Source: an uncultured Alphaproteobacteria bacterium (GTDB lineage: Bacteria; Pseudomonadota; Alphaproteobacteria; Bin95). Taken from it: a stretch of DNA of 64,000 bases. This document shows positions 12,928 through 64,000 of this stretch, one piece after another; within the stretch, counting starts at the first letter, position 1; each line of letters opens with the position of its first letter. A program made the translations under genes and the position numbers. The stretch covers positions 6,700 through 70,699 of the forward strand of contig CALAHN010000081.1 in the NCBI GenBank assembly GCA_937891825.1, given 5' to 3'. The notes beneath the pieces are model-generated. The model had not been told where the DNA came from. It saw only the letters and a program-made list of their open reading frames with translations, and ran no database searches.

Positions 12928-12979
12928 CGATCGCTAGCAGTCGCCTCAAAGCGCCGCGCTGTCGCCGGCGTGGGTCCCT

Positions 12980-13306: not shown

Positions 13307-13369
13307 CGACGTTACCCCCTGGTTTTTGCAGCGTTGCGGTTCTTCAGATCGATTGAAGCAGGGCGGCGT

Positions 13370-14392
13370 CTACCGCGAGCCCGGCGTGTGTTTCAGATAG
13401 GATTGCCGGTCGCCGGTGCGGACCGAGATGTCGCGCAGACGATTATCGCGAAGGATGTTGAGGCGGACGGTCGCGCCGGCCGGACCCCGCGCCCAGAGCG
13501 CGCGATAGAATTCCGGCAGGTCGCTCACGTCTTCGCCCGCGACGCCGACGATGGCGTCGCCGATCTTCAGGTTCGAGCGGGCGGCGGGCCCGGTCTCAAC
13601 CATGCCGGCGATGACAAGCGCGCCGTCGGCTTCGGTCACGAACATGCCGAGCCAGGGCCGCGGCTCGCGCTTGGCGTGGCCGGTCGCGGCCATATCCTGG
13701 ATGATCGCGCCCAGCATATCGATCGGCACGAACATGTTGCCGGCCGGCGAGGTTTCGGCCGGCAGCACGTCCTGCACATAGAGCGACCCGATGCCGATCA
13801 GCTTGCCAGCGGGCGTCAGCAGGGCGGCGCCGCTCCAATGGGGGTGCGGCGGCGCGGTGAAGAGCGCCTCGTCGACCAGGTATTCCCAGTAGCCCGCGAA
13901 CTCGCGCTTCGAGAGCAGGCGCACCGTCTGGCCATAGCTTAACCCGCCGCCGGCGAGCACGGTCAACTCTGCCCCGGTCCCGACGTCCCTGGCGGAGCCG
14001 AGCGGGATCGGCCGGGCGTCGAACGGCTCCGTCAGGCGGACGAGGCCGTAGCCGGTCGCCTGATCGTAGCCGACGACTTCCGCGGATTTGGCGGCGCCGG
14101 CGTGATCGACCAGCGAAACCGTGGTCGCTTCGGTGATCAGGTAGCCGATGGTCAGGCAAAGGCCGTCCTGGTCGATCAGCACCGCGTTGCCTTCGCGCTT
14201 GACGCCGAGATGCTGGGCGGTGAAAGCGTCCGGCGGGGCTTTGGCGTGCAACGTGAACACGGCGCGACTTGCCGCCGCGACGTCATACTCCAGTTTATCG
14301 GGCCTGGGACGCAGATCGGGTTGGACCGATTCGCGGCCAGGGAAATCGTCGCCGCCGTATTCGGCGCCGTTCGTGCGTTCCGTGCCGGCCAT
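13370..14392 (-). CDS. Trypsin-like (S1C) peptidase-fold protein with C-terminal PDZ domain; catalytic Asp not evident
   Basis: 340 aa; region aligns with DegP protease domain (HAGAAKSAEVV ~ HVVAGAEKIIV; HWSGAAL ~ GNSGGPAF) then a PDZ-like IGDAIVGVAGEDV segment. Confidence 0.6.
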   Translation of the reverse strand: MAGTERTNGAEYGGDDFPGRESVQPDLRPRPDKLEYDVAAASRAVFTLHAKAPPDAFTAQHLGVKREGNAVLIDQDGLCLTIGYLITEATTVSLVDHAGAAKSAEVVGYDQATGYGLVRLTEPFDARPIPLGSARDVGTGAELTVLAGGGLSYGQTVRLLSKREFAGYWEYLVDEALFTAPPHPHWSGAALLTPAGKLIGIGSLYVQDVLPAETSPAGNMFVPIDMLGAIIQDMAATGHAKREPRPWLGMFVTEADGALVIAGMVETGPAARSNLKIGDAIVGVAGEDVSDLPEFYRALWARGPAGATVRLNILRDNRLRDISVRTGDRQSYLKHTPGSR

Positions 14393-46699: not shown

Positions 46700-49662
46700 G
46701 CGCCGTCCTCCACATCCTCGGCGCGCCTGGCAAGCGAGCGATAGTCGGAATAGCTGACGGCGCCTCTGGGTTCGCTGAGATAGGGCGTCGCCGCATCGTC
46801 GAAGGCGTCGATCAGCCGGCCCATGCCCTGCCAGCAGGTGGCAAGCGCCTCGGCGACTTCCGCCTCCTTCAGTTTCACGACCTTGCCGTCGCCCTTACCG
46901 CCGATCTTCCAGATCGCGAGATGCGCCGTCGTTTCGCCCGAGAGGCCGCCGAATTCGCCGTAGAGCACGATCGCGGCTTCAAGCGGCAATTGCGGCTCCG
47001 TCCCGTCGCGAATGGATTTAATGGTCGGCGCGGTCCCGGTCTTGATGTCGGCGATGGCGACGGCGCCGGACGCCAGCCGGTCGATGCGGTCTGCCCGACC
47101 GGTCAGCTTGAAAAGGCCGGCCGGGGCCGCGAAGGAGGCTGCGCCCTTGACCTCGGGCAGGACCTCGGTCACAGCGAGCGCCTGGCGATGGTCGCGTTCG
47201 GTCTCCGCCGCCCAGGCGGCCGCCCGGTCGAAGGCTGGGCGCCAGAATGCGGCGATAGTGGGAATATCGGCCAACGGCCCGAACGCCGTCGCCGCCGCCT
47301 GCCTGAGTTCCGCCGCGATATCCGCCGGGAGGGATGTCGGCCAGTCCCGCAAGAAGGTTTCAAAGGCCGCATGGACGATCGCGCCCCGATCCGCGGGATT
47401 GGGCGTCGGGTCCAGGGCAGGCAGGGCCGTCAGCCCCAGGACATGGCGGGCGTAGATCGCGTAAGGGTCGTCGCGCAGGGTCTTGATCTGCGTCACTGAC
47501 AATTGCCGCGGCCGCATGGCGATATCCGGCGTCGGGGCGGGTTCCGGGATGACGATCTTCGGCAGGATCGGGTCCAGCCGCTTCGCCCAGTCCCGGTAGG
47601 GCCGCCCGTCGTCGGCGTGCAGGGGTTCTTCCTGAGCGGCGGCCAGAACCGCGTCGAGCCGCGCCAGCCAGCGCGACGGCTTGGTCGGCGCGCCCTCCCG
47701 GCGCAGGCTGCGGGTCAGCAGGACATTGGGCGTCGCCAGCAATTGCGCGAAGTCGTGGGCCGAGAGGCCGATGCGGCGCTCCAGGTCCGAGAGGCCGATT
47801 TCGGCGCGCATCGGGCGGCTGAACCAGGGATCGGTCGGCGCCTTCCGGGGCCAGACGCCCTCGTCGAGACCGCCGAGCGCGATGGCGTCATACCGGCCGA
47901 GCCGGGCTTCCAGAACGCCAAGGATGGCGACGCCGCCGCCGCTCCGGCGCGGGCGCACGGGCTGGCTCGCGATCAGGGCGTCGAAGGCGTCGGGATAGTC
48001 GTCGAGGCCAAGGGCAGGGCTCGCCGGGGCTGCTTCCAGGATGCTCGCGAGCAACAAGGCGGCCGCCTCGCCGTCCGCTTCCCGCCAGAGCCGCTCCGCG
48101 CCGGATGCGGCCTCGGTCGCGGCCAGAGCTTCGGCGACTTCGATATGGGCGGTCAGGAGCGCGGCAAGCGGCGCCTCTGCGTCTTCGCCGAACGCGGCGA
48201 GCGGCGCGGTCAGGTCCTGAATGCGCTGGGCGAAGGCCTGAAGCGCCGGGTCCTCGTTGAGCAATCCGACGACCGCCGCCATCGAGGTTGCGCTGCGTTG
48301 CAGTTTCTTGTCGCGCCAGACCTTGAGCTCCAGCGCGCGGGCCGCCTGGCGGAAGGCGGCCCGCTTGCCGCCCCCGGCGGCCAGGGGATGTTTCAGCAGG
48401 CTCAGCAGATCGACCGCGGCGGCGCCGGGCCGGCAGGCGCGGGCGACCAGCCGGAGAAAGGCCCCGACCGGCATGTCCCCAAGCGGGCGGCCGCTCGAAT
48501 CGTCGGCCTCGATGCCCCAGCGCCTGAGTTCGACCGCGACCCGGCGGGCGAGCGCGCGGTCGGGCGTCGCCAGCGCCACGGCGTCGCCATGCCCGGCGAA
48601 GGCGCGGAGATAGAGGGCGATGACCCGCGCTTCCTCGTGGTCGGTCGCGGCGTCGACCCGTTCGATCCCGTTCCGGCCGGCAAGGAAGGTCCCGGGCGCC
48701 AGATCGGCCCAACCGGCGACGCTATCGGCCGGGCGGAGCGCTTCCTGAATGAACCGCCGCCGTTCCCGCGCGCCGGCGAAATCCGAGGCCGGCCAGGGCT
48801 CGACCGCATCCTGCTTGACCTTGAGGTCGATCAGGGCGGCGGCCATGGCGTGCTGCGGATGGCTGGGGGCTTCCAGGACGGCCCGGAACTCGGCGTCGGT
48901 CTGGTCATGCTCGAAGCCGGGCAGCACGACCGCGCCCTGCGGCGCCGCCAGCACGGCGGCCATCAGGTCGCGGGTCGAGGCGAGCGCGCCGGTCGATCCG
49001 GCGATCACCACGGGCGCGTCGGCCGGCGTCGCGCGCCAGACGGCTGCCTGGGCCGCGAGCAGGGCCTCGCGGCGGGCGGCTGGGTCCATCCGGTCGGCTT
49101 CCGTCAGGATTTCGGGCCAGGCGTCGAGCACGATCTTCAGGAACTGCACGACGGCCTGCCAGTGGGCGGCATACTGGCCGGGGTCGATCGCGGCGATCCT
49201 GGCGACGTCGACGCGCTCGATCTGCAATTCGTCGAGGAAGCGCGAAAGTGCGGCGGCGACGCGAATCGCGGCGGCGAGCGGCAGCGTATCGCCATGCTCC
49301 GCCGTGTGCCGCTTCTGGGCGAGAGCGGCCAGCATGAACTGGCGGCGGAGGGGATCGATCGCCGGCGGCAGGTCCAGGGTCGCCTCGATCCGGCCGAGCG
49401 CCGGTTCGACCGCGGCGAAGGCCAGCTCCTCGGCCTCGACGTCGCCGAGCGCATAGGCCTGGGGCAGCAGCCCGGCGCCGTTCGCGTGACGCAGGAAAGC
49501 CGCCGTCAGGTCGCGGCAGGCGCGCCGGGTCGGCAGGTAAACCCGCGTCTTCGCAAGGGTTTCCGGCGGATAGGCCCGGATCAGCCCGGCCGCGAGATCG
49601 TCGAGGAAACTGGCGCCGGCCGGGATCGTGAACAAGCCGCGGAGCGTCATGCCGGCGCTCAC
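46696..49662 (-). CDS. addB: Double-strand break repair protein AddB
   Basis: 988 aa; overlaps addA start by 4 nt; conserved alphaproteobacterial addB–addA–trxA order. Confidence 0.8.
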   Translation of the reverse strand: MSAGMTLRGLFTIPAGASFLDDLAAGLIRAYPPETLAKTRVYLPTRRACRDLTAAFLRHANGAGLLPQAYALGDVEAEELAFAAVEPALGRIEATLDLPPAIDPLRRQFMLAALAQKRHTAEHGDTLPLAAAIRVAAALSRFLDELQIERVDVARIAAIDPGQYAAHWQAVVQFLKIVLDAWPEILTEADRMDPAARREALLAAQAAVWRATPADAPVVIAGSTGALASTRDLMAAVLAAPQGAVVLPGFEHDQTDAEFRAVLEAPSHPQHAMAAALIDLKVKQDAVEPWPASDFAGARERRRFIQEALRPADSVAGWADLAPGTFLAGRNGIERVDAATDHEEARVIALYLRAFAGHGDAVALATPDRALARRVAVELRRWGIEADDSSGRPLGDMPVGAFLRLVARACRPGAAAVDLLSLLKHPLAAGGGKRAAFRQAARALELKVWRDKKLQRSATSMAAVVGLLNEDPALQAFAQRIQDLTAPLAAFGEDAEAPLAALLTAHIEVAEALAATEAASGAERLWREADGEAAALLLASILEAAPASPALGLDDYPDAFDALIASQPVRPRRSGGGVAILGVLEARLGRYDAIALGGLDEGVWPRKAPTDPWFSRPMRAEIGLSDLERRIGLSAHDFAQLLATPNVLLTRSLRREGAPTKPSRWLARLDAVLAAAQEEPLHADDGRPYRDWAKRLDPILPKIVIPEPAPTPDIAMRPRQLSVTQIKTLRDDPYAIYARHVLGLTALPALDPTPNPADRGAIVHAAFETFLRDWPTSLPADIAAELRQAAATAFGPLADIPTIAAFWRPAFDRAAAWAAETERDHRQALAVTEVLPEVKGAASFAAPAGLFKLTGRADRIDRLASGAVAIADIKTGTAPTIKSIRDGTEPQLPLEAAIVLYGEFGGLSGETTAHLAIWKIGGKGDGKVVKLKEAEVAEALATCWQGMGRLIDAFDDAATPYLSEPRGAVSYSDYRSLARRAEDVEDGA

Positions 49663-50432
49663 AGCAGCAAGGGCTGGCGGGCGGGATCGGCGGCGACGCG
49701 GGCGGCTGTCAGGCGGGCGGGCGTGCCGACGTCCATCCAGCCGCCGCCATGGGTCACGCCGAACAGGCGCCCGGCCTTGGCGGCGCGGTCATAAAGCGCA
49801 TTCAGGGAGAACGCCCCATCCGGCAATCCGGCGAACGCGCCGGGGGTCAGCAATTGAGCGCCGGTGAACAGGAAAGGCGAGGTTTCGGTTTCGTGGCGGC
49901 GCACGAGAGCGCCGATGCCATCCATGTAGAAATCGCCGCGACCCTCATAGCCCTGGGCGCGCATGGTCGGCAGCATCAGCAGCAAGGCGTCCATGGCGGC
50001 CGGCCGCCAGGCGCTTTTCAGGGCGTCGAGACCGTTCGCGAGCGCGTCGTTCCACCAGACATCCGCATTGACTGCAAAGAACGGCGCGGCGCCCAGCAGC
50101 GGCAGGGCCTGCTTCACGCCGCCGCCGGTTTCCAGCGGCTCGTCCTCAAGCGAGACCTCGACCGGCAGCGGCGGCGCGGCCCGGTTGAGATGGGCGACGA
50201 TCTGGTCCTTCAAATGGGCGGCGTTGACGACCGCCCGTTCGACCCCGGCCGCCGCCAGGCCTTGCAGCGCCTGATCCAGCAGCGCGACGCCGCCGACCTC
50301 CATCAACGCCTTCGGGCGTTGCCGGCCGAGCGCCCCAAGGCGCGCGCCGCGCCCGGCCGCCAGCACCATGCCGACCCGAACAATGGCGGGCGGCGCGGGC
50401 GTCAGAACCAGGCGGGCGATGTCGGCGCTCAT
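49659..50432 (-). CDS. Nucleotidyltransferase family protein (MurU-like N-acetylmuramate-1-phosphate uridylyltransferase)
   Basis: 257 aa; MVLAAGRGARLGALGRQRPKAL G-rich NTP-transferase motif; synteny with AmgK-like kinase. Confidence 0.7.
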   Translation of the reverse strand: MSADIARLVLTPAPPAIVRVGMVLAAGRGARLGALGRQRPKALMEVGGVALLDQALQGLAAAGVERAVVNAAHLKDQIVAHLNRAAPPLPVEVSLEDEPLETGGGVKQALPLLGAAPFFAVNADVWWNDALANGLDALKSAWRPAAMDALLLMLPTMRAQGYEGRGDFYMDGIGALVRRHETETSPFLFTGAQLLTPGAFAGLPDGAFSLNALYDRAAKAGRLFGVTHGGGWMDVGTPARLTAARVAADPARQPLLL

Positions 50433-51448
50433 CGGGCGGCGGCGCTCTCAAGCTGAATGGCGCGTTGGCGGGCGTCCGCCGGCAGCGCGCAGTCGAGAAA
50501 TTCCGCCACATCGGCGAGCAGCGGATGGGCGAGGCTAGTTTCGAGCAGGGACCAGGTTCGGCGCATGTGTTTCAAATACCCCGGTTTCCCATCGCGCCGC
50601 CAGAGCCTGACCCACAGGCCGGCGACGCGCATGTGCCTTTGCCCGCCATGAACGGCGAGCGCCGCTGCGATCGCTTGGGCCTCGAATTCGGGAAACGCCG
50701 CCCGGTAGCGCAGGATGCACGAAGCCTTGATGGCAGGATCGAGCGGCCGCCGAGCATCCTCCAGCAATGAGGCGAGGTCATAGGCGAAAGGTCCCCACGC
50801 GGCATCCTGAAAGTCGAGCACGCCGCACGCCTGAACCCCGGCCCGGTCGTCGAGGCGCATCAAATTATCCACGTGAAAATCCCGATGCACGACGCCGCAT
50901 CCAAGGCCAGGGGCTCGCTTCAGGGCATCGAGCCAGAGGGCGTCGAAGGTCGCGCGCGTCGCTGGGCTCGGCGGCTTGTCCATGACCGCGGGCCAGAGCC
51001 AGTCGAGGACAGTCGAAAGCTGGGCGACCCGGGTTTCAGCCGTATAGGCAGGAAGGCCCGGAGGCCGGTCGGGCATCGCCTGGCGGAGCTGGATCAGGGC
51101 GTCGGTCGCGAGGTCATAGAGCGGTGCCGGGTTCGCGCCGGCGTCCAGCAAGCGGGTGAAGGTCCGGTCGCCGAAATCCTCGAGCAACAGGAAGCCCGCG
51201 TCCACGTCAGCCGCGATCGCCGTCGGCGTGCTGAGGCCGGCGGCGGCAAACAGGGCGCCGACGGACAGGAACGGGCGGATGTCTTCCCTGGGCGGCGGCG
51301 CGTCCATCAGCATGGCGGTCGCGCCGTCGAGCGTCAGCCGGGCATAGCGCCGGAACGAAGCATCGCCCGGCCGCCACGCCAGATCGGCGGCGGCCCATCC
51401 AGCTTGCCGGAGGAACGCCGTGCGGAGGGCGTCGCGGTCCTGCATCAA
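50429..51448 (-). CDS. Aminoglycoside phosphotransferase-fold kinase (AmgK-like anomeric MurNAc/GlcNAc kinase)
   Basis: 339 aa; VVHRDFHVDNLM catalytic loop, DFQDA motif. Confidence 0.7.
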   Translation of the reverse strand: MMQDRDALRTAFLRQAGWAAADLAWRPGDASFRRYARLTLDGATAMLMDAPPPREDIRPFLSVGALFAAAGLSTPTAIAADVDAGFLLLEDFGDRTFTRLLDAGANPAPLYDLATDALIQLRQAMPDRPPGLPAYTAETRVAQLSTVLDWLWPAVMDKPPSPATRATFDALWLDALKRAPGLGCGVVHRDFHVDNLMRLDDRAGVQACGVLDFQDAAWGPFAYDLASLLEDARRPLDPAIKASCILRYRAAFPEFEAQAIAAALAVHGGQRHMRVAGLWVRLWRRDGKPGYLKHMRRTWSLLETSLAHPLLADVAEFLDCALPADARQRAIQLESAAAR

Positions 51449-52896
51449 TAACCGGGCGGCGGCTCGAAGGCCTGAAAGTCGCGCTCAAGCATTTTCGCGG
51501 TCTCGATCCCGGTCAGGTCCTCCAGATAGGGTGCGATGATCTGCACGCCGACCGGCAGGCCGGAGCGCGTGAGGCCGATGGGCGCGCTGGTGCCCGGCAA
51601 GCCGACGACGCCGTTCCATCCGGCCCAGAACAACTGGTCCGTCGTCGGCACGGGCTTGCCGTTGACCGGGATCGTCCGGTTCCAGCGCTCGCCCGCTTCG
51701 TCCTGAAGGAAGGCGGCGGAAGCTGCGACGGGGCAGAGCAGCACATCCCAGTCCGTGAAGAATTCGGCCCACACAGCCCGCATGCGCATGCGTTCGTTGT
51801 TGAGCTTCAGCCAATCCCGGTGCCGCATGACGTTCGCCCGCGCCATCTCCGCGTAATAGCTGCGGTCGTCCTCCGGCAGGGCGTCGATCTCCCGGAGGTT
51901 CTGCTGGATCAGCGCCTCCGGCTGGCGCCCCGAGGTCGCGGCCCGCAGCAGCGAAATATACGTGCGGTGCGCCGCCATCTGGTCGAGGTCCGGCAGGGCC
52001 GTATCGCTGATCCGGGCGCCGGTCTTCGCCAGAAATTCGATGAGATCGTGCAGCTTTTCGCCGTATTCGGCGTCGGTCTCGGCGACGGGCGACGATGTCT
52101 GCACCGCGATCCTGAGGTCCTTGAGGGCGCGCGCGCGCGGCGCCGGCGGCTCGAACTTCCAGGCTTTGCCTTCATCGGCTTCCGGCCCCACCATCACGCC
52201 GAACGCCGTTTCGATGTCGCTGGCCGAGCGCGCCAGCGGCCCGATCACGGAGATATCCGCGAAAGCATGGGCGCCGGGCAGCGCGTGGCCGCGGGGCGGG
52301 ATCACGCCATAGGTCGGCTTGTGGCCGTAGACGCCGCAATAGTGGGCGGGATTGCGGATCGACGCGCCGATATCGGAGCCGGCCTCAAGCCCCGTCATGC
52401 CGGACGCCAGCGCCGCCGCTGCGCCGCCGGAGGAGCCGCCGGGCGTGCGCGTCAGGTCCCAGGGATTGTTCGTCGTGCCGTAGATTTCATTGTAGCTCTG
52501 CCAGTCGGCCAGCATCAGCGGCACATTGGTCTTGCCGAAGATGACGGCGCCGGCGCCCTTCAGCCGCGCCGCCGCGAGGGCGTCGACGGGCGCGATATTG
52601 TCCTTGAAGGCAGGGTCGCCCCAGGTCGTCGGCAGGCCCTTCAGATTGTAGCTTTCCTTCAGGGTCATCGGCACGCCATGCAGCGGCCCGAGGAGATCGC
52701 CCCTGGCGAGCACCGTGTCGGCGGCCCTGGCGTCGGCCGCCGCGGTTTCGAGGTCGGTCTGGATGATGGCGTTCAGTTTCGGATTGTGGGCATGCATCCG
52801 TCCGATGAAATGCTCCAGCGCCTCGGCCGCGCTAATCCGCTTCTGGCGGATGTCGTCGGCGATGCCTGACGCTGACTTGAAATGCAGATCTGTCAT
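51445..52896 (-). CDS. Amidase (amidase-signature family)
   Basis: 483 aa; GGSSGGAAAALASGMTGLEAGSDIGASIRNPA AS-signature with Ser-cisSer-Lys triad. Confidence 0.85.
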   Translation of the reverse strand: MTDLHFKSASGIADDIRQKRISAAEALEHFIGRMHAHNPKLNAIIQTDLETAAADARAADTVLARGDLLGPLHGVPMTLKESYNLKGLPTTWGDPAFKDNIAPVDALAAARLKGAGAVIFGKTNVPLMLADWQSYNEIYGTTNNPWDLTRTPGGSSGGAAAALASGMTGLEAGSDIGASIRNPAHYCGVYGHKPTYGVIPPRGHALPGAHAFADISVIGPLARSASDIETAFGVMVGPEADEGKAWKFEPPAPRARALKDLRIAVQTSSPVAETDAEYGEKLHDLIEFLAKTGARISDTALPDLDQMAAHRTYISLLRAATSGRQPEALIQQNLREIDALPEDDRSYYAEMARANVMRHRDWLKLNNERMRMRAVWAEFFTDWDVLLCPVAASAAFLQDEAGERWNRTIPVNGKPVPTTDQLFWAGWNGVVGLPGTSAPIGLTRSGLPVGVQIIAPYLEDLTGIETAKMLERDFQAFEPPPGY

Positions 52897-53571: not shown

Positions 53572-54372
53572 ATGATCCGCGCCCTCCGCGCCCTTCGCCC
53601 GCTGATCTTCGTCGCCGCATTGACGGCGGCCGTCGTCGCGGGCGGCGTCGGCGGCATGGTCCGGGCGGCGCCCCTGGTCGCGCTCACGGATTATGTGGTC
53701 GATGCGGCCGACGTGATCCCGGCGGACCGGGAAACGGCGCTCTCCGCGCTGCTCCGCGCCCATGAGGCGGAGACATCGAACCAGATTGCGGTCGCGACCG
53801 TGCCGTCATTGAACGGCGAAGTTCTGGAGCAAGCGGCGCTGGAAATCCTGCGCTCCACCGGCTTGGGCCAGGCCAACCGCAATAACGGCGTGCTGTTGTT
53901 GATCGCGGTCGAGGAACGTCGCATCCGGATCGAGGTGGGCTACGGCCTTGAAGGCGCCCTGCCGGATGCGCTGGCGGGGACGATCATCACTCACGCGATC
54001 ACGCCGCGCTTCAAGGCCGGCGACATGCCGGGCGGCATCGAAGCCGGCGTCGAGGCGATCATCGCCGCGATCAAGGGCGAATACGCGGCCGACCCGGACG
54101 ATTGGGACGGCGGCGATCCGGCTTGGATACCGTTCATGATGTTCGGCCTCTGGCTGGCGTTCGTGGTTTTCGTCATGTGGCGGCGCGGCCGGCGAGCCAG
54201 GGGCCGCAAGCGGGGCGGCATCCTGAGCGATATTGCAGCGGGCGCGCTCCTTGGCGGCGCCGCGGGCGGCTCTTCGGGCGGCGGCTGGTCAAGCGGCGGC
54301 GGCTTCGGGGGCGGCGGTTTCGGCGGCGGCGGCGGATCTGGCGGGGGCGGCGGCGCCTCCGGCGGCTGGTAG
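53572..54372 (+). CDS. TPM-domain (YgcG-like) protein with C-terminal TM and Gly-rich tail
   Basis: 266 aa; signal peptide; NQIAVATVPSLNGEVLEQAALEILRSTGLGQANRNNGVLLLIAVEERRIRIEVGYGLEG; ends GGGFGGGGFGGGGGSGGGGG. Confidence 0.8.
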   Translation: MIRALRALRPLIFVAALTAAVVAGGVGGMVRAAPLVALTDYVVDAADVIPADRETALSALLRAHEAETSNQIAVATVPSLNGEVLEQAALEILRSTGLGQANRNNGVLLLIAVEERRIRIEVGYGLEGALPDALAGTIITHAITPRFKAGDMPGGIEAGVEAIIAAIKGEYAADPDDWDGGDPAWIPFMMFGLWLAFVVFVMWRRGRRARGRKRGGILSDIAAGALLGGAAGGSSGGGWSSGGGFGGGGFGGGGGSGGGGGASGGW

Positions 54373-54381
54373 GAGCGGGCA

Positions 54382-55002
54382 ATGGCGGACTTCATCCCAC
54401 CTGAGGCGCAAGCCCGCGTCGAAGCGGCGATCCAGGCGGCGGAAACGCATACCCGCGCCGAGCTTGTCGCCGTGGTCGCGCCGGAGAGCGACGATTATCG
54501 CTTCGTGGTGCTGGCCTTCGCGGCGGTCCTCGGGCTGGCGGCGCCCTTCATTTGGTCGCTTGGCCTGCTCCAGGGCGGGGCGATCGAAGCGCACGCGGCG
54601 TCGCTTGGCGTCGCGCTGGCGATCCTGATCCTCGGGCGGATCGACGGCGTGCGCCGCTTGCTGGCCCCGAAATCCTTGCAGCATCGACGGGCGGCCCGCA
54701 ACGCCCGGGCGCAGTTCTTCAGCCAGAAGGTGCGCATGACGCGGGATCGGGCAGGCGTCCTGCTGTTTGTTTCCGTGTTCGAGCGGCATGTCGAAATCAT
54801 CGCCGACGACGCGGCCGCGGCCGCCGTGCCCGCCGCCGTCTGGGAGGAGGCGATCGCGGCTTTCGTCCAGGCCTTGCGGGCGGACGGCCCGCCTGCGGGC
54901 TTGCTTGCCGCCATCGCCGTGCTCGACGATGCGCTGGCGAAACACCTGCCGGGCGATGCGGCCGATCAGGACGAGTTGCCGAACCGCCTCATCATTCTTT
55001 AG
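54382..55002 (+). CDS. TPM-domain protein (DUF477-like, membrane-anchored)
   Basis: 206 aa; EAQARVEAAIQAAETHTRAELVAVV; completes the common LemA–TPM–TPM triad. Confidence 0.75.
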   Translation: MADFIPPEAQARVEAAIQAAETHTRAELVAVVAPESDDYRFVVLAFAAVLGLAAPFIWSLGLLQGGAIEAHAASLGVALAILILGRIDGVRRLLAPKSLQHRRAARNARAQFFSQKVRMTRDRAGVLLFVSVFERHVEIIADDAAAAAVPAAVWEEAIAAFVQALRADGPPAGLLAAIAVLDDALAKHLPGDAADQDELPNRLIIL

Positions 55003-55033: not shown

Positions 55034-55906
55034 ATGCCGTTTGACGTGCAGACCCCCCATGCGTTCGCGCATATCCGGACCCGGCCGATCGCCGGCGCGG
55101 TCGGCGCCGAGATCGAAGGCGTCGATCTGGCCGGCGACCTTGGCGACGATGCGATCCGGGAGATCCGTCAGGCGCTCGTGAACCACGGCGTGATCTTCTT
55201 CCGGAACCAGTCCCTGTCCCCGGAGACGCTGATCGCGGCCGGGCGCCGGTTCGGGCCGCTCAATGTGCATCCGATCTACAAGCCGCTGCCCGGCCATCCC
55301 GAAATCCTGCCGGTCGTCAAGGAAGCCGGCGACGCCATGAACATCGGGAATTCCTGGCATTCGGACGTGAGCTTTCTGGAAAAGCCGTCCATGGGATCGC
55401 TGCTTTACGCCGTCGAGGTTCCGCCCTACGGCGGCGACACGATTTTCGCGTGCCAGCGGCTCGCCTATCTCGGCCTCAGCCCGGAGATGCAGCGTATGCT
55501 GGGCGGCATGCGCGCCGTGCATTCCGACCGCATCCTGTCTAGCGCCGCCTCGAAGAAGAAGCGGAACGCCGGCCGCTCGACCATTTTGGACGAACGGGAA
55601 ACGCCGGAAGTCCAGACCATCCATCCGGTCGTCCGCACCCATCCCGAAAGCGGCGCCAAGCATCTCTATGTGAACGAGGCGTTCACCATCGCCTTCGAGG
55701 GCATGAGCGAGGCCGAGAGCAAGCCCTTGCTGGATTACCTCTACCTGCATGCCAGGACGCCGGAATACACCTGCCGCTTCCGGTGGGAGCAAGGCTCCGT
55801 CGCCTTCTGGGACAATCGGGCGGTCCAGCATTATGCCTTGAACGATTACCAGGGCTTTCGGCGCGAAATGTGGCGCGTCACCGTTGAAGGCGAGCGACCG
55901 ATTTGA
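55034..55906 (+). CDS. TauD/TfdA-family Fe(II)/2-oxoglutarate-dependent dioxygenase
   Basis: ATG 55034 with GGAGGA SD (listed ORF 54767.. is over-extended); WHSDVSF (HxD), later His; 290 aa. Confidence 0.8.
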   Translation: MPFDVQTPHAFAHIRTRPIAGAVGAEIEGVDLAGDLGDDAIREIRQALVNHGVIFFRNQSLSPETLIAAGRRFGPLNVHPIYKPLPGHPEILPVVKEAGDAMNIGNSWHSDVSFLEKPSMGSLLYAVEVPPYGGDTIFACQRLAYLGLSPEMQRMLGGMRAVHSDRILSSAASKKKRNAGRSTILDERETPEVQTIHPVVRTHPESGAKHLYVNEAFTIAFEGMSEAESKPLLDYLYLHARTPEYTCRFRWEQGSVAFWDNRAVQHYALNDYQGFRREMWRVTVEGERPI

Positions 55907-57939
55907 CCAAGCAGACCCGCGCCGGCGTCGAAGTCGGCGGCACGTTTACCGATCTCGTCTATGTCCGGGACGGGGAGATCATCGTGGCCAAGGCGCCGTC
56001 GACGCCGTCCTCGCCCGACAAGGGCGCGCTGGCGGCGCTCGCCAAGGGCGGGGTCGATCTGGCGACGCTGGACGAACTGGCCCATGGCTCGACGGTCGCG
56101 ACCAACGCCATTCTGGAGCGCAAGGGCGCCAGGGTCGCGCTGATCGTGACAGCGGGCTTCCGGGACCTGCTGCTCTTGCAGCGCCACCAACGCCGCCGGA
56201 TCTACGACCTGAACTATGAGAAGCCGGCGCCCGTCGTCCGCCGCCGGGATACCCTTGAAGCGGCGGAGCGCATCGGGCCGGACGGCACGGTGCTGCAGGC
56301 GCTCGACGGCGAGGCATTGCGGGCGGCGCTGCGCGCGCTTCTGGCGGAACGCAGTTTCGATGCGGTCGCGATCTGCCTGCTGAACAGCTTCGCCAACCCG
56401 GCCCACGAGTTGGCGGCGACGGCGATCGTCAAGGAACTCGCGCCGGAAATGTCGGTCGCGCCGAGCCATGCCATCGCCCGGGAATTCCGGGAATATGAGC
56501 GCGCTTCGACGACGACGCTTTCGGCCTATGTACAGCCTGTGGTCGGCCGCTATCTGGATCGTTTCGAAGCCGCGCTCTCGGCCCAGGGCTTCAAGGGCGC
56601 GTTTTCGGTGATGCAGTCGAACGGCGGCCGGATGCCGGCGGCGGCGATGGCGGAGAACGCGATCGCGGCCCTGTTTTCCGGTCCCGCGGCAGGCGTTGTC
56701 GGCGCTGTCGCCCAGGCGGCGCGCTCGGGTTTCAAAGACCTGATCACGCTCGACGTCGGCGGCACCTCGACCGACGTGTGCCTCGCGCCCGACGGCCGCC
56801 CGGCGCTTGCGGCTGCGACGGAAATCGACGGCTTGCCGGTCAAGACCCCGGTCATCGACATGGCGACCATCGGCGCCGGCGGCGGCTCCCTGGTCTGGGT
56901 CGACGATGGCGGCATGCTCCGGGTCGGCCCGGAAAGCGCAGGCGCGGAGCCTGGCCCGGCGTGTTACGGCCGGGGCGGCGTCGCGCCGACGATCACCGAC
57001 GCCCATGTCGTGCGCGGCACGATGCAGGCGGGCGCCTTCCTCGGCGGCGAGATGACCTTGGACGTCGCGGCCGCAACGGCGGCGTTCCAGCCGCTCGCCG
57101 AACGCTTCGGCACATCGCCGCTCGCTATCGCCGACGCCGCGATCCAGTTGGCAGAATCGAATATCGCCCGCGCCATTCAGCGGGTCTCGACCGAGCGCGG
57201 CCGCGATCCGCGCGATTATGCGCTGGTCGCCTTCGGCGGCGCCGGGCCGATGCATGCGGTCCGGGTGGCGGAGGAGATCGGCCTCGCTGCCGTCGTCATC
57301 CCGCCGTTCGCGGGCGTGCTTTCGGCGCTGGGCCTCCTGGTCGCCGATTATGCCCGCTTCGCCGCCTTAACCGACCGCCAGCCGCTGAACGACGCCACGG
57401 CCGATCTCGTGCGCGGCCATATCGCGACGCTCGACGGCGAAATCCGCGCCCATTTCGCGGCGCACAGCTTGCCCGCGCCGACGGCGTTCCACTACACCCT
57501 CGACATGCGCTATCGCGGCCAGGCGTTCGAGGCCCCGGTCGCGCTGACCTCGGCCGAAGCGGCGTCGCTGGACCGCGACGGGCTGGAAGACCGGTTCCGC
57601 GCGGCCCACCGCCAGCTCTACGCCTTCGCGAAAGCCAAGGGCGAAGCGGCGGAGATCGTGGCATACCGCGCTGGCGGCGCCGTGCCCGCCCCGGCTTTTC
57701 CAAGCGCGCCGGTCGCGCGCATCGAGGCGGAGCCGACCCCGGTCACGCTGTTTGAGCGCGGCGCCGAACGGCAGGCCAGCTTGCTGCCGCGCGCCGCCCT
57801 TGGCGATGCGGATCGTCCGGGCCCGCTGCTGATCGACGACGGTTTCGCGACCGTCTTCGTGCCGACCGGCTGGCAAGCGCGGCTTGATCCGGCCGGCAAC
57901 ATCGTCATCACCCAAGGGAGTCGCCGCCATGGCGCTTGA
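55903..57939 (+). CDS. Hydantoinase/oxoprolinase family protein, A (HyuA-like, ATP-hydrolysing) subunit
   Basis: 678 aa; TTG start overlapping the dioxygenase stop; GVEVGGTFTDLV N-terminus. Confidence 0.8.
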   Translation: MTKQTRAGVEVGGTFTDLVYVRDGEIIVAKAPSTPSSPDKGALAALAKGGVDLATLDELAHGSTVATNAILERKGARVALIVTAGFRDLLLLQRHQRRRIYDLNYEKPAPVVRRRDTLEAAERIGPDGTVLQALDGEALRAALRALLAERSFDAVAICLLNSFANPAHELAATAIVKELAPEMSVAPSHAIAREFREYERASTTTLSAYVQPVVGRYLDRFEAALSAQGFKGAFSVMQSNGGRMPAAAMAENAIAALFSGPAAGVVGAVAQAARSGFKDLITLDVGGTSTDVCLAPDGRPALAAATEIDGLPVKTPVIDMATIGAGGGSLVWVDDGGMLRVGPESAGAEPGPACYGRGGVAPTITDAHVVRGTMQAGAFLGGEMTLDVAAATAAFQPLAERFGTSPLAIADAAIQLAESNIARAIQRVSTERGRDPRDYALVAFGGAGPMHAVRVAEEIGLAAVVIPPFAGVLSALGLLVADYARFAALTDRQPLNDATADLVRGHIATLDGEIRAHFAAHSLPAPTAFHYTLDMRYRGQAFEAPVALTSAEAASLDRDGLEDRFRAAHRQLYAFAKAKGEAAEIVAYRAGGAVPAPAFPSAPVARIEAEPTPVTLFERGAERQASLLPRAALGDADRPGPLLIDDGFATVFVPTGWQARLDPAGNIVITQGSRRHGA

Positions 57940-59560
57940 TCCCGTCGAACAGGCGATTATCGCCCAGTCCCTGATCGCGGCCGCCCAGGAAATGGGCGTG
58001 AAGCTGATCCGCTCCGCGCATTCGCCGATCGTGCGCGAGGCCGAGGATTGCTCGGCCGCGCTTCTGACGGCGGACGGCGCCGTCGTGGCGCAGGCCGAAC
58101 TGATCCCGATGCAGCTTGGCTCGATCACCCACACCTTCCGCCATTGCGCCGAGCGGCATCCGCCCGACGGCATGGGCGAGGGCGATTTCTACATTACCAA
58201 CGACGCCTATCTCGGCGGTCAGCACATTCAGGATATCTTCCTGTTCAGCCCGATCTTTCTGAAGGGCGTGCGGATCGGCTTTTCCGCGACGGTCGTGCAT
58301 CACATCGACCTCGGCGGCGGCGCGGCCGGCCTCAACCCGAACGCGACAGATATTCATTCCGAAGGCATCGTCTTCCCGGCGCTCAAGCTGAACCGGGAGC
58401 GCGACTGGACCGGCGGCCCCTGGGAGGCGTTCGTGCGCGCCAACGTCCGCATGCCGGACGCGACGCTCGGCGATATCGACGCCCAGTTCGCGGCCAATGC
58501 CGTGGGCGCCGAGCGGCTGACGGCGCTTGCGGAGAAATATGGGACCGCGAAGCTTGAAGAAGCGATGGCGGAAATGCTCGATTATTCCGAACGCCGGGTC
58601 CGGAACGCGCTCCGCGAAGCGCCGGACGGGGTTTATGAAGGCGAGGACGCGATCGATGACGACGGCCAGGGCTCCGGCCCGATCCGCGTCAAGGCGACGG
58701 TCACCATCGCCGGCGACCAGATGACCATCGACTTCGCCGGCACCAGCGATCAGGTCGGCTCCAACATGAACAATCCGTTCGCCTCGACGGTATCGGCCGC
58801 GGTCGCGGCGGCGAAGTCGGTGCTGACGGACCCCGATATTCCCTTCAATGACGGCTGCTCGCGGGCGATCCGGGTGACGGCGCCGGAAGGCTCGATCCTC
58901 AATCCGCGCTACCCGGCCCCTGTCCGGGCGCGGCTGCTGCCGAGCTACCGGGCGTTCGACGCCGTGATGAAGGCGCTCTCGAAAGCCGCGCCCGGGCGCG
59001 TCATCGCAACCGGCACCGACACGACGACGGCCTGCTGCCTCTCCTGGCTCGGGCCGAAGGGCTACGACATCTATCTGGAAATTTTCGGCGGCGGTTACGG
59101 CGCCGGCCTCAACAATGACGGCGTCGACGGCGTCGACAGTCCGCTTTCGAACTGCGGCAATATCCCGGTTGAGGCGACCGACATGGATCACGGCTTTTTC
59201 CGCTGCGTCGACTACAGCTTGATCCCGAATTCAGGCGGCGCCGGGCGGATGCGCGGCGGCCTGGCGCTGCGCAAGGTCTATGAGATTCTGGAAAACGGCG
59301 TGGTGTTCGCCACCTATGGCGACCGCTTCAAGATCGCGGCGGAAGGCATTTTCGGCGGCGAAGCGGGCCAAACCGCCATGAACCGGGTGTTGCGCGGCAA
59401 TCAGGTCATCGATCTGACGTCCAAGTGTCAGTTCAAGTTGCAGAAAGGCGACCGTCTGATCGTCCAGACCGCGGCGGGCGGCGGCTATGGAGCCGCGCAA
59501 GACAGGCCGAACGCGCGCAGCCTCAGGGATTATGAAGACGGATTGATGGCGGCGGAATAA
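57929..59560 (+). CDS. Hydantoinase B/oxoprolinase family protein (HyuB-like subunit)
   Basis: ATG 57929 (MALDPVEQAIIAQSL) overlaps hyuA end; 543 aa. Confidence 0.8.
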   Translation: MALDPVEQAIIAQSLIAAAQEMGVKLIRSAHSPIVREAEDCSAALLTADGAVVAQAELIPMQLGSITHTFRHCAERHPPDGMGEGDFYITNDAYLGGQHIQDIFLFSPIFLKGVRIGFSATVVHHIDLGGGAAGLNPNATDIHSEGIVFPALKLNRERDWTGGPWEAFVRANVRMPDATLGDIDAQFAANAVGAERLTALAEKYGTAKLEEAMAEMLDYSERRVRNALREAPDGVYEGEDAIDDDGQGSGPIRVKATVTIAGDQMTIDFAGTSDQVGSNMNNPFASTVSAAVAAAKSVLTDPDIPFNDGCSRAIRVTAPEGSILNPRYPAPVRARLLPSYRAFDAVMKALSKAAPGRVIATGTDTTTACCLSWLGPKGYDIYLEIFGGGYGAGLNNDGVDGVDSPLSNCGNIPVEATDMDHGFFRCVDYSLIPNSGGAGRMRGGLALRKVYEILENGVVFATYGDRFKIAAEGIFGGEAGQTAMNRVLRGNQVIDLTSKCQFKLQKGDRLIVQTAAGGGYGAAQDRPNARSLRDYEDGLMAAE

Positions 59561-59625
59561 GTCTCGCTGCTGCGCTGCAATATCGTGTTAGGCTAGATTC
59601 GACCTGAATTGGTAAGGATCGATCC

Positions 59626-62600
59626 ATGGCCATACATGCGGCGCTCACCCACGTCACCCGCTATGCCTATGACCGTCGGGTTCAGATGGGGCCGCAAGTG
59701 GTTCGCCTCCGGCCGGCGCCGCATGCCCGGACGCCGATCGTCAGCTATGCCCTGAAGATCGAGCCGGAAGAGCATTTCATCAACTGGCAGCAAGACCCGC
59801 ACGGCAATTTTCAGGCGCGCATCGTCTTCCCGGAGCCTGTGACCCATTTCACGGTCACGGTCGATCTCGTCGCCGACATGTCGGTCCTGAACCCGTTCGA
59901 CTTTTTCCTGGAGCCGGACGCCGAGGAACAGCCTTTCACCTATGCGGCCGACCTGAAGGAAGAGCTTGAGCCGTTCCTGAAGCCCACGAGCGGCGGCGAT
60001 CGGTTCATGAAATGGATCAAGAGCCTGCCGCCGAAAAAGGGCCGGACCATCGACTACCTGGTCGCCGTCAACTCCCAGATTCAGCGCGATGTCGAATATC
60101 TCGTTCGCATGGAGCCCGGCGTGCAGACGCCGGAGGAAACCCTGGAACGGGGCAAGGGCTCCTGCCGGGATAGCGGCTGGATGCTGGTGGAGGCGATGCG
60201 GCATCTGGGCTTCGCGGCGCGTTTCGTTTCCGGATATCTCATTCAGTTGAAGCCGGATATCGCGTCCCTCGACGGGCCTTCGGGCGCCGGCTATGACTTC
60301 ACCGATCTCCATGCCTGGACCGAGGTTTACCTGCCGGGCGCCGGCTGGGTCGGGCTCGATCCGACTTCGGGCCTGTTCGCCGGCGAAGGCCATATTCCGC
60401 TCGCCGCGACGCCGAAGCCATCGAGCGCGGCGCCGATCTCCGGCGCTATCGGCGAAGCCGAGGTCGAGTTCAGTTTCGACATGCAGATAACCCGCATCGC
60501 CGAAACCCCGCGCGTGACGAAGCCCTACACGGCGGAGCAATGGCAGGAGATCGATCGGCTGGGCGACCGGATCGACGAAGCGCTCGAAGCAGGCGACGTG
60601 CGCCTGACGATGGGCGGCGAGCCGACATTCGTCTCGATCGATCATGTGGATGCGGAGGAATGGAATACCGGCGCTGTCGGACCGACCAAGCGGCCGCTTG
60701 GCGACAAGCTGATCCGGCGGCTCCAGGCGAAGTTCGCGCCCGGCGGGCTGCTGCATTACGGCCAGGGCAAGTGGTATCCGGGCGAGCAATTGCCCCGGTG
60801 GGCCTTCGCCCTGTTCTGGCGCGTCGATGGCGTGCCGATCTGGCGCGGGACCGGGGCCATCGCCGAGGAAGCGAAGGACTACAAGCCGACCCCAGCCGAC
60901 GCTGGCGCGTTCGCCGCCGGCATCGCGGATCGCCTGGGCGTCGCGTCGGAAGCTGCGATGCCGGTCTATGAGGACCCGGTCCATTTCATCGGCCGCGAAG
61001 CCTGCTTGCCCGACAATGTTACGCCGGGGGATTCCAAGCTCGACGATCCGATGGAGCGCGACCGTCTGGCCCGGGTCTTCAGCCGCGGTCTCTCGACCCC
61101 GGTCGGTTATGTGCTGCCGTTGCAGCGCTGGAACGCCAAGGCCAAGGGCCGCCGCTGGGTCAGCCAGATCTGGAAAACCAGAACCGGTCGGCTGACGCTG
61201 ATCCCGGGCGATTCGCCCATCGGTTACCGCCTGCCGATCGCATCGCTCCCGCATATCGCCGAAGCGCTTTATCCGCGCGTCATTCCTGTCGATCCGTTTG
61301 TCGAGCGGCCGCCGCTCGATCTGCCCGATCCCGTGCGCCAGCCGTTTCTCCAGGGCGCGCCGGATGCGACGCCGTCGCCGCAGGTCCAGTATGAGCAAGG
61401 ACCCGGCGGCCCGGCGCGCGTCGCCATGTCGGTCGAGCCGCGCGACGGCCGCCTGTGCGTGTTCATGCCGCCGACCGAAACGCTTGAGGATTATCTCGAC
61501 CTGCTGGCGGCCGTGGAGGACATGGCCGCCGAGTCCGGCATGCCGATCCATGTGGAAGGCTATGAGCCGCCGCGCGATCCGCGTCTCAACATGATCAAGG
61601 TGACGCCCGACCCCGGCGTGCTGGAAGTGAACATCCAGCCGGCCAGCACCTGGCGCGAAGCCGTCGACATCACCCAGACGCTGTATGAGGAAGCGCGGCT
61701 CTGCCGCCTGGACGCGCAGAAGTTCATGCTCGACGGTCGGCACACCGGCACGGGCGGCGGCAACCACGTCGTGCTTGGCGGAATCTCGCCCGCCCATAGC
61801 CCGTTCCTGCGCCGGCCCGACCTGTTGCGCAGCCTGATCATCTATTGGCAGCGTCATCCGAGCTTGAGCTATCTGTTCTCCGGCATGTTCGTCGGCCCGA
61901 CCAGTCAAGCGCCGCGCATCGATGAAGCCAGGCACGATGCGCTCTATGAGCTTGAGATCGCCTTCTCCCAGATCCCGGGGCCGGAGACTTCATGTCCGCC
62001 CTGGCTGGTCGACCGGATTCTCCGCAACCTCCTGATCGACGTCACGGGCAACACCCACCGGGCCGAGATTTGCATCGACAAGATGTATTCGCCCGACGGG
62101 CCGACCGGCCGGCTCGGCCTCGTCGAGTTCCGCGCCTTCGAGATGCCGCCGCATCCTGAAATGAGCTTGACCCAGCAGTTGTTGCTGCGCGGCCTGATCG
62201 CGATGTTCTGGAAGCAGCCGCTGACCGGCGGCCTGACGCGCTGGGGCACCGGGCTGCATGACCGGTTCATGCTGCCGGCCGCGATCGCAATGGACTTCCA
62301 GGAGGTTATCCAGGACTTGAACGAAGGCGGGTTCGCCTTCGACATGGCATGGTTCGCGCCGCACCTGGAATTCCGCTTTCCCTGCTATGGCCAGATTTCC
62401 TATGGCGGCGTCGATATCGAGATCCGGCAAGCGCTCGAGCCCTGGCATGTCATGGGCGAGGAAGGCGCGGTCGGCGGCACGGTGCGCTATGTCGACTCCT
62501 CCGTCGAGCGCGTGCAGGTCAAGGCGACCGGCCTCGCCGCTGGCCGCTACAAGATCGGCTGCAACGGGTTTGAAGTGCCGTTGACGCCGACCGGCGTCGT

Positions 62601-62928
62601 CGGCGAGCAATTCGGCGGCGTGCGCTACCGGGCCTGGCGTCCGCCCTCCGCCCTGCACCCGACGATCCCGATCGATGCGCCTCTGATCTTCGATCTGTAC
62701 GACACCTGGAGCGGCCGCGCCGTCGCCGGGTGCGCCTATCATGTCAGCCATCCGGGCGGACGCAGTTTCGATGTCTTCCCGGTCAACGACTATGAGGCGG
62801 AAAGCCGGCGGCTGGCGCGCTTTTCGGAGATCAGCCACACGGCCGGCAAGTCGCCGCCGCCGCGCGCTGCGCCGAACGCCGCCTTTCCGATGACGCTCGA
62901 TCTCCGCCGCGCTCGTGCGGGCGCCTGA
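59626..62928 (+). CDS. Large transglutaminase-like protein (Bact_transglu_N + transglutaminase/cysteine-protease core + DUF2126-type C-terminal region)
   Basis: 1100 aa; intact Cys-His-Asp core ([30 protein letters not shown]; [21 protein letters not shown]); SD TAAGGA. Confidence 0.85.
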
Positions 62929-63082
62929 CGGAATTACGGGATTGGAAAGTATTTCGGCGCATAGCCAAGGCGTCGGCGCACGCCGAGCCGCCCGTATCGC
63001 TGAACCTGAAGCGTAGTATGGAGAACGATGGGTGAACGAATTGAAGCTGCTATCCAGCGCCCGGCCGGCGGCCGTCAGCCTG

Positions 63083-64000
63083 ATGAGCGGATATCGACCC
63101 GTCCCCGGCGCCTTCGACGAGATGATGGGGCCGGACGGGACGGCGCGGCCGCATTGGCAGCCGTTTCTCGATGAGATCGGCAAGCTCTCCGAACCGGCGC
63201 TGAAGCGTCTCTGGAACACCACCCAGCGTCTCGTCCGGGAGAATGGCGCCACCTACAACGTCCATGATGAGACGGGCGATGGCGACCGGCCCTGGCGGAT
63301 GGACCCGATCCCCTTCCTGATCGCGCCGGAGGAATGGCGGGTTCTGGAGGAAGGCCTGATCCAGCGGGCGACGCTGTTGAACGCCATCGCTTCCGATATC
63401 TATGGCGGCCAGAGCTTGTTGCGGCAGGGGCTGCTGCCGGCGTCGCTGGTCTTCGGCAATCCGAATTTTCTGCGCCCGCTGCATGGCGTCGAGCCGCCAG
63501 GCGGCGTCCATCTGAACCTGATGGCCTTCGATGTGGCGCGCGGCGCCGACAATCGCTGGTGGGTCTTGAGCAACCGCACGGAATCGCCCGCCGGCGCCGG
63601 ATATGCGCTGGAAAACCGCATCGTCCTCTCCAGGACAATGCCGGAGACGCTGCGCGCGCTCCGCGCTCATCGCCTCGCCGAATTCTTCCAGGCGATGAGC
63701 GACGCCATGATCGCCCATACCGGCCAGGACAGCCCGCTCGCCGTGCTGCTGACGCCGGGCCCCCACAGCGAAACCTATTTCGAGCACGCCTATCTCGCCC
63801 GGTATCTGGGCTTCCCGCTGGTGGTCGGCGCCGATCTGACGGTCCGCGACAACAAGGTCTATCTGAAGACCCTGGACGGCCTGAAGCAGGTGCATCTGAT
63901 CTTCCGCCGGGTCACCGGGGAGAACAGCGATCCCCTGGAATTGCGCGCCAAATCCCATGACGGCGTCGCCGGTCTGGTGGAGGCGATCCGGGCCGGCACA
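63083..64000 (+). CDS. Circularly permuted type-2 ATP-grasp protein (COG2308 family), 3'-truncated by window edge; absent from the supplied ORF track
   Basis: Open frame from ATG 63083 to window end: MSGYRPVPGAFDEMMGPDGTARPHWQPFLDEIGKLSEPALKRLWNTTQRLVRENGATYNVHDE...WRMDPIPFLIAPEEWRVLEEGLIQRATLLNAIASDIYGGQ...YLGFPLVVGADLTV, the characteristic N-terminal half of this family. Confidence 0.8.
   Translation, partial: MSGYRPVPGAFDEMMGPDGTARPHWQPFLDEIGKLSEPALKRLWNTTQRLVRENGATYNVHDETGDGDRPWRMDPIPFLIAPEEWRVLEEGLIQRATLLNAIASDIYGGQSLLRQGLLPASLVFGNPNFLRPLHGVEPPGGVHLNLMAFDVARGADNRWWVLSNRTESPAGAGYALENRIVLSRTMPETLRALRAHRLAEFFQAMSDAMIAHTGQDSPLAVLLTPGPHSETYFEHAYLARYLGFPLVVGADLTVRDNKVYLKTLDGLKQVHLIFRRVTGENSDPLELRAKSHDGVAGLVEAIRAGT

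Follow-up and report, generated by a model that had tools for sequence, protein, structure and literature searches.

A conserved three-gene cluster coding for TGL-DUF2126, ATP-grasp-Alpha-E and small transglutaminase-like proteins in an alphaproteobacterial contig: a putative amide ligation system

Introduction

Bacterial operons that associate a circularly permuted (cp) ATP-grasp protein, an Alpha-E protein and a transglutaminase-like (TGL) protein, including the Anbu operon, were predicted by Iyer, Abhiman, Burroughs and Aravind in 2009 to be "peptide ligase-peptidase" systems (as quoted in PMC5666114, PMC6376114 and PMC3495828). In this prediction the TGL protein reverses the addition of tags by the ATP-grasp (PMC3495828). 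We describe here a cluster of this kind at the right-hand end of a stretch of 64,000 nucleotides from an uncultured Alphaproteobacteria bacterium (contig CALAHN010000081.1, positions 6,700 to 70,699; hereafter the window). It is composed of three genes: gene 1 codes for a large TGL-DUF2126 protein; gene 2, cut by the window edge, for a cpATP-grasp fused to Alpha-E; and gene 3, beyond the edge, for a small TGL protein.

Related clusters and families have been described. Proteins of the Rv2566 family carry an N-terminal transglutaminase-like domain and a C-terminal one from the superfamily of carboxylate-amine/ammonia ligases (PMC2588565), and Pfam describes DUF2126 as a "putative amidoligase". 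In Burkholderia cenocepacia H111, I35_5080-5083 code for a DUF404/407 protein, a DUF403 protein, a TGL protein and a large TGL protein, and loss of ntrC lowers their expression by 6 to 9.4 log2 units (PMC5491218); the large TGL protein presumably contains DUF2126. The Anbu operon of Pseudomonas putida is induced under nitrogen starvation (as quoted in PMC6376114), and in marine metagenomes the domains of these clusters correlate with urea-metabolism domains (PMC3597751).

An earlier reading of the window, made from its sequence only, held that no member of the system had been characterised biochemically. This is nearly right, but phosphate is released from ATP by the cpATP-grasp of Yersinia bercovieri (PMC6376114), a protease activity has been reported for Rv2569c (PMC11081392) and the Burkholderia cluster depends on NtrC/sigma-54 (PMC5491218). 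The comparative-genomic background given in the same reading (cpATP-grasp, Alpha-E and TGL proteins, with a fused DUF2126) is accurate so far as it can be checked in PMC5666114, PMC6376114, PMC3495828 and PMC2588565. Our literature search returned no paper naming DUF2126, none combining the NCBI product names, and no work after 2018 joining Anbu, ATP-grasp and operon.

Results

Gene 1 codes for a TGL-DUF2126 protein

Gene 1 occupies positions 59626..62928 (+). It is a listed open reading frame (ORF) starting with ATG, whose 1100 codons contain no internal stop, and a Shine-Dalgarno-like AAGGA can be read 7 nt 5' of the ATG (59614..59618, +). The protein starts with a TGL module made of the beta-sandwich Bact_transglu_N (residues 7-83; 59644..59874, +; 87 bits in Pfam) and of the transglutaminase/papain-fold Transglut_core (residues 143-246; 60052..60363, +; 61 bits), both above their cut-offs. 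The rest of the protein (residues 277-1094; 60454..62907, +), for which a glutamine synthetase (GS)-like carboxylate-amine ligase fold is predicted, corresponds to DUF2126 (PF09899, 1302 bits) from end to end, i.e. profile positions 2-826 of 826. The two transglutaminase domains and the intact Cys-His-Asp triad announced by the sequence-only reading are thus confirmed by translation and Pfam; its DUF2126-like region is confirmed as well, but measures about 818 amino acids and not about 700.

The triad consists of Cys180 (codon at 60163-60165), His229 (60310-60312) and Asp245 (60358-60360), all on the + strand, and is invariant in 81 of 81 orthologues. Over the whole protein 234 positions are invariant among these 81 sequences, which come from several phyla. 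At least 8000 homologues, 64-75% identical, share the three-domain architecture, and 2962 matches at E<=1e-30 were obtained among 1.84 billion representatives of 50%-identity clusters. No NCBIfam model matches the protein of gene 1 or that of gene 2. Some DUF2126 proteins of about 770-840 amino acids (P0256, P0281, P0282 and P0291) among the 2962 matches align only with residues ~280-1097 of gene 1; therefore a form of the putative ligase devoid of the N-terminal TGL module exists.

An antisense ORF of 780 amino acids lies inside gene 1 (59593-61935, -), and similar ORFs are present in 80 related loci. These shadow ORFs, which cluster across loci, are an artefact of the high G+C content and of the strong conservation of the sense frame; they are not genes.

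Gene 2 codes for a cpATP-grasp fused to Alpha-E

An exact-sequence look-up of the 1100-residue protein retrieved three metagenome contigs (L001-L003), which show no real mismatch with the window over 5,579 to 9,646 bases. On these identical contigs the frame that the window cuts remains intact for 859 amino acids. The window holds the first 323 of the 859 codons (63032..64000, +) and the gene continues to window-equivalent position 65611.

Within the window the fragment matches CP_ATPgrasp_2 (302 bits, profile positions 1-232 of 374, the match being cut by the window edge) and CP_ATPgrasp_1 (244 bits). Over its full length, read on the identical contig, the protein matches CP_ATPgrasp_2 at residues 94-473 (467 bits) and, beyond the window edge, Alpha-E (PF04168) at residues 523-843 (211 bits). 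An identical copy of it is called on 14 contigs and it has 7999 homologues at E<=1e-20. The cpATP-grasp identity assigned from the fragment is therefore upheld, and every profile match that this assignment called for was obtained.

The start of gene 2 had been placed at ATG 63083, 154 bp downstream of gene 1. The frame is indeed open from this ATG to 64000 (306 codons) and the gap to it is 154 nt, but the start is most likely GTG 63032, in frame and 51 nt 5' of the ATG. Four observations support this choice: a GGAG at 63020-63023 lies 8 nt 5' of the GTG; gene calls on the identical contigs start there, giving 859 amino acids; homologues are 857-863 amino acids long; and, when 67 orthologues are aligned, the Met encoded by ATG 63083 faces an internal L, V or A, the orthologues having 15-25 residues ahead of the conserved motif (S/A)GY-x-P-x-x-G-x-(Y/F)DE(M/L). 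With this start the spacer between genes 1 and 2 (62929..63031, +) is 103 nt long and not 154; it contains the GGAG, and no consensus promoter or terminator. The frame is missing from the ORF list because the ORF tool omits ORFs running off an end. As proposed before, the ORFs listed at 63050..63958 (-) and 63334..63960 (+, out of frame) are shadow ORFs in DNA of 68% G+C.

Gene 3 and its neighbours lie beyond the window edge

Directly after gene 2, the identical contigs carry gene 3, which codes for a 293-residue protein with Bact_transglu_N and Transglut_core domains. The stop of gene 2 and the start of gene 3 overlap by 4 bp (ATGA), and the two genes are likely to be translationally coupled through this overlap. 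An Alpha-E protein and a small transglutaminase had been expected just past the edge: both are there, but Alpha-E is fused to the ATP-grasp and is not a separate gene. The triad of gene 3 (C183/H226/D242) is invariant in 52 of 52 orthologues. The gene 3 protein can be aligned with the gene 1 protein over residues 7-292 of the latter, with 26% identity; gene 1 thus amounts to a gene 3-type TGL module to which DUF2126 has been added, and gene 3 is a paralogue of the 290 N-terminal residues of gene 1.

No signal peptide and no transmembrane or hydrophobic segment was found in the proteins of genes 1-3 (maximum Kyte-Doolittle mean over 19 residues, 0.88-1.39), and all three are therefore probably cytoplasmic.

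Past gene 3 the identical contigs carry a convergent SBP_bac_5 gene, then pentapeptide-repeat, CinA and EamA genes. The SBP_bac_5 gene, of the peptide-binding type, is located at 12125-13558 (-) of L001, i.e. at about 66479-67912 in window-equivalent positions, and its 3' end overlaps that of gene 3 by 11 bp. From the called start, the N-terminus of its product does not resemble a signal peptide, and the gene has no ABC permease or ATPase gene next to it.

The conserved unit is made of exactly three genes

A scan of one genome per species gave at least 599 relatives of gene 1, of which the best 80 were kept for comparison of the loci. These 80 belong to Rhodospirillales, Hyphomicrobiales, Rhodobacterales, Beta- and Gammaproteobacteria, Nitrospirales, Planctomycetia, Bryobacterales, Vulcanimicrobiota and Bacteroidota, the closest to gene 1 being metagenome-assembled genomes of Rhodospirillales (72% identity); the window probably comes from a Rhodospirillales-like alphaproteobacterium. 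Downstream synteny was counted in the 70 loci having at least 3.5 kb of 3' flank. In 65 of the 70 an ATP-grasp-Alpha-E fusion in one ORF lies immediately 3' of gene 1, and in 63 it is followed by the small TGL gene, all three genes being in order. Over these 63 complete loci, the median identity to the window copy is 60.5% (gene 1), 39.5% (fusion) and 41.7% (small TGL), a comparison biased by the choice of the loci on gene 1 similarity.

All ORFs of at least 120 amino acids from 81 loci were clustered all against all. The only widely shared clusters of real ORFs are genes 1-3, the other large clusters being shadow ORFs inside them. Synteny and clustering together define the unit as exactly three genes: this trio, and nothing else, is conserved across phyla. 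The short gaps between genes of the same strand suggest that the trio forms one putative operon. The cluster is found in Agrobacterium, Sinorhizobium and Bradyrhizobium, and in Mycobacterium tuberculosis as Rv2566/Rv2567.

In L029, L041, L057, L061 and L063 gene 1 has no fusion gene immediately downstream. L061 has a distant homologue of the fusion (27% identity) upstream of gene 1, and L057 an ATP-grasp on the opposite strand, about 3 kb away. These five loci are rearranged variants of the cluster.

A promoter scan of the identical contig found no sigma-70 consensus at the module, and terminator-like sites are no commoner there than in shuffled sequence. In 79 genomes the 300 bp upstream of gene 1 were found to hold no sigma-54 motif, and the window has none close to the module.

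Comparison with described systems

The system predicted in 2009 is recognised here by a cpATP-grasp (CP_ATPgrasp_1/2; COG2308), an Alpha-E and a TGL with intact triad, in a neighbourhood kept across phyla. The same three families form one cluster on the same strand, in the order ATP-grasp, Alpha-E, TGL. Two features nevertheless differ: ATP-grasp and Alpha-E are fused into 859 amino acids, as in most of the related genomes, and an additional TGL-DUF2126 gene leads the cluster. No gene for Anbu, a proteasome beta-like Ntn hydrolase, is present among the called genes of the cluster-bearing contigs, and the locus does not belong to the Anbu subtype.

Gene 1 has the domain architecture described for Rv2566, with a full-length PF09899. 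Likened to Rv2566 by description, it is an orthologue-level member of the DUF2126/Rv2566 family, with no difference of substance. In the Burkholderia cluster, by contrast, the genes are unfused, the large protein comes last and dependence on NtrC/sigma-54 is strong, whereas the window and the 79 relatives have no upstream sigma-54 motif.

Glutathionylspermidine synthetase/amidase (GspSA of Escherichia coli), trypanothione synthetase, the eukaryotic-type glutathione synthetase and YgiC offer a further parallel, in that an ATP-dependent synthetase makes an amide bond which a papain-like thiol amidase, its partner, can undo. In the cluster, however, the amidase would be a TGL and not a CHAP domain, either fused to DUF2126 or standing alone, Alpha-E has no counterpart in that group, and no CHAP or GspS Pfam match was found in the module proteins. 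By this analogy GspSA would be a functional analogue and is not of the module's family. As for GS, GCS2 (YbdK) and PafA-Dop, sequence similarity is undetectable with the tools used. Neither a Pup gene, nor a proteasome/Mpa neighbourhood, nor a Pup_ligase Pfam match accompanies the cluster, and it is not a pupylation system.

Structural models

The core of DUF2126 was modelled, with moderate confidence, in the fold of GS, gamma-glutamylcysteine ligase (GCS2) and PafA; DUF2126 (about 820 amino acids) has additional alpha/beta parts at its N-terminus and beta-rich parts at its C-terminus. This GS-like fold lends independent support to the view, reached in 2008 from sequence profiles, that Rv2566-family proteins belong to the superfamily of carboxylate-amine ligases (PMC2588565). 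When three sub-fragments of DUF2126 were scanned against Pfam with relaxed settings, DUF2126 alone was returned.

The nearest structural relatives of the ATP-grasp are the glutathione, homoglutathione, glutathionylspermidine and trypanothione synthetases, YgiC and the E-64 ligase Cp1B, with sequence identities of 7-13%. Alpha-E is all-helical and is modelled with a confident position relative to the ATP-grasp. LapG and TgpA are among the structural matches of the TGL core.

Other features of the window

Upstream of gene 1 a TauD-family dioxygenase, HyuA (678 amino acids) and HyuB (543 amino acids) are encoded at 55034-59560 (+) with overlapping start and stop codons, and probably constitute a separate operon. 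Three independent metagenome assemblies break inside HyuB at 58412-58422: the L002 and L003 contigs stop at 58422, and in L001 ten N stand in place of the GGCGGCCCCT that occupies 58412-58421 in the window. The apparent 10-base difference between the window and L001 was discarded, being this run of N in the scaffold. The break may be due to strain variation or to a coverage problem.

A perfect sigma-54 consensus, TGGCACGGTGATTGCT, is present at 462-477 (+) with 0 mismatches, directly upstream of genes for an SBP_bac_3 solute-binding protein and an ABC permease (ORFs 473-1618 and 1790-2986). From its sequence, this locus looks like an amino-acid transporter under NtrC/sigma-54 control. On the opposite strand (43184-49662, -), a UvrD-helicase protein with a PD-(D/E)XK domain (1171 amino acids) and then a 988-residue PD-(D/E)XK protein resemble an AddA/AddB-type pair. 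After this pair come an NTP-transferase, an APH-family kinase and an amidase (49659-52896), and then two consecutive TPM-domain proteins of 266 and 206 amino acids (53572-55002, +). The window contains no tRNA gene.

Discussion

The window carries at its edge most of a three-gene unit whose members and order are kept across phyla. No early stop interrupts the edge frame, the downstream partners are present and the profile matches are strong; the interpretation proposed from the sequence is thus supported as essentially right, except for the points corrected above.

We propose that the unit uses ATP to form amide bonds, reversibly, on a small peptide or amine substrate, possibly tied to nitrogen limitation, a reading that we hold to be on balance probable. 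DUF2126 and the ATP-grasp, whose folds are unrelated, would each use ATP to activate a carboxylate as an acyl-phosphate and would join it to an amine. The substrate would most likely be a small peptide or amine; this is preferred to a protein because the close relatives of the ATP-grasp use small molecules or short peptides, and the GS-like relatives make gamma-glutamyl amide or isopeptide bonds. Hydrolysis or transfer of the amide bonds made by the unit would fall to the two papain-fold thiol (TGL) domains, so that the product could be undone or recycled, as with glutathionylspermidine synthetase/amidase and PafA/Dop. Alpha-E, fused to the ATP-grasp, is a probable substrate-binding or regulatory partner. 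As to physiology, nitrogen limitation would be the best current guess, transferred from homologous clusters.

Several points weigh against this proposal. In the literature searched, a substrate or product is known for no member of the family, and Rv2567 and Rv2411c were inactive in the only assay reported, an unrelated one for the synthesis of GABA-trehalose (GABA, gamma-aminobutyric acid; bioRxiv 10.64898/2026.04.15.718621). The nitrogen link is borrowed from clusters with another gene order and unfused genes, and the sigma-54 motif is absent upstream of gene 1, in the 79 genomes as in the window, yet a perfect site exists elsewhere in the window; by analogy with those clusters, the link is a lead and not a finding. 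The relation of DUF2126 to GS is structural only and is based on a model of moderate confidence, in which the stretches with a predicted local distance difference test score (pLDDT) below 50 include 700-711, 752-770 and 803-829, which hold highly conserved motifs. With hhalign, an alignment of 46 DUF2126 sequences gave no signal against E. coli GlnA (probability 0.07), so that the many E, D, H and R among the invariant residues of gene 1, such as E332, E345, E387, E644, E667, H706, H714, R764, H811, E834, R836 and E839, come without a residue-level alignment to the metal and ATP ligands of GS. A profile search of the PDB with the DUF2126 family alignment returned TGL entries only, and no ligase. 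Alpha-E matches generic helical bundles only, which makes its role a guess. Finally, these data leave room for a protein substrate.

The main rival is protein tagging, which makes up the remaining half of what had been predicted in print (as quoted in PMC3495828 and PMC6376114). In this view the ligases would modify proteins, on side chains or at C-termini, with an amino acid or a short peptide that the TGL domains would take off again, as in tubulin tyrosination and glutamylation or in pupylation. A conserved protein substrate would fit the 234 invariant positions of gene 1. But the neighbourhood conserves three genes only, with no small tag gene, proteasome or Anbu, and Pup-like ORFs were already noted to be absent (PMC2588565). 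Moreover, all of the ATP-grasp's closest structural relatives have small molecules or short peptides as substrates, and pull-downs with the Yersinia operon gave no stable complexes (PMC6376114). We therefore consider protein tagging unlikely, while taking it seriously. A location outside the cytoplasm, with exported proteases or cross-linking enzymes acting on envelope or host proteins, would bring the system close to periplasmic TgpA, to LapG or to Rv2569c, the first two being structural matches of the TGL core. In the M. tuberculosis locus, Rv2569c is presumably the counterpart of gene 3. This transglutaminase-like protein of the YebA superfamily has been reported to be located in the cell wall and to cleave E-cadherin as a "serine protease" (PMC11081392). 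Its activity is nevertheless insensitive to E-64 and N-ethylmaleimide (NEM) (PMC11081392), a poor fit with an invariant Cys-His-Asp triad; signal peptides and hydrophobic segments are missing from all three proteins; and the genes are tightly coupled to two ligases that need cytoplasmic ATP. Export thus appears very improbable.

The sequence-only reading had left open whether the Hyu and TauD genes belong to the same locus, and the trio could be imagined to work with them in local catabolism, e.g. in a gamma-glutamyl/5-oxoproline cycle, HyuA/HyuB being of the hydantoinase/oxoprolinase type. They are on the same strand, with 65 nt and no terminator consensus between the HyuB stop (59560) and ATG 59626, and enzymes of the HyuA/B type and GS-like ligases are both generally known in gamma-glutamyl metabolism. 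However, tblastn (E<1e-10) revealed no homologue of HyuA, HyuB, TauD or SBP_bac_5 up to 8 kb away from gene 1 in any one of the 80 loci, ORF clustering shows no conserved neighbour besides the trio, and the overlaps of TauD, HyuA and HyuB with one another make them a unit of their own. Synteny thus rejects the Hyu and TauD genes as parts of the module, and a shared catabolic role has in our view only the slenderest chance of being correct. Judging from the gap, the trio could still be co-transcribed with HyuB, in an arrangement that is not conserved. As for the edge frame being a pseudogene or a chance frame, DNA of such G+C content is full of long shadow ORFs, but the 302-bit Pfam match, the intact continuation on identical contigs, the identical protein on 14 contigs and the thousands of homologues already refute this, and we give it practically no credit.

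Reversible ligation on a small substrate being retained as the preferred reading, it can be extended into a more speculative one, which we put forward tentatively and regard as doubtful. With two unrelated ligases and two thiol amidases, the trio, which ranges from the Alphaproteobacteria to the Nitrospirales, Planctomycetia and Acidobacteria, might serve to make and recycle an undiscovered cytoplasmic amide-linked metabolite, short peptide or polymer in nitrogen limitation. If this were true, bacterial nitrogen or gamma-glutamyl metabolism would have a new branch of wide distribution, with a reach comparable to that of glutathionylspermidine or cyanophycin, of which the window copy would be one representative and not a special case.

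The window copy itself is an ordinary orthologue, with nothing unusual, of a system catalogued in Pfam and NCBI names and predicted in 2008-2009. It is no easier to test than existing model organisms, and its value is that of a correctly annotated example. Our analysis adds a clean definition of the three-gene unit, structural support for a putative GS-like ligase in DUF2126, and the observation that the nearest structural relatives of the ATP-grasp are all small-molecule or short-peptide ligases. Among bacterial gene clusters lacking a known substrate, this operon is one of the more widespread and strongly conserved, and it is present in tractable and important organisms; working out its function would close a real gap in our picture of amide-bond and nitrogen metabolism in bacteria.

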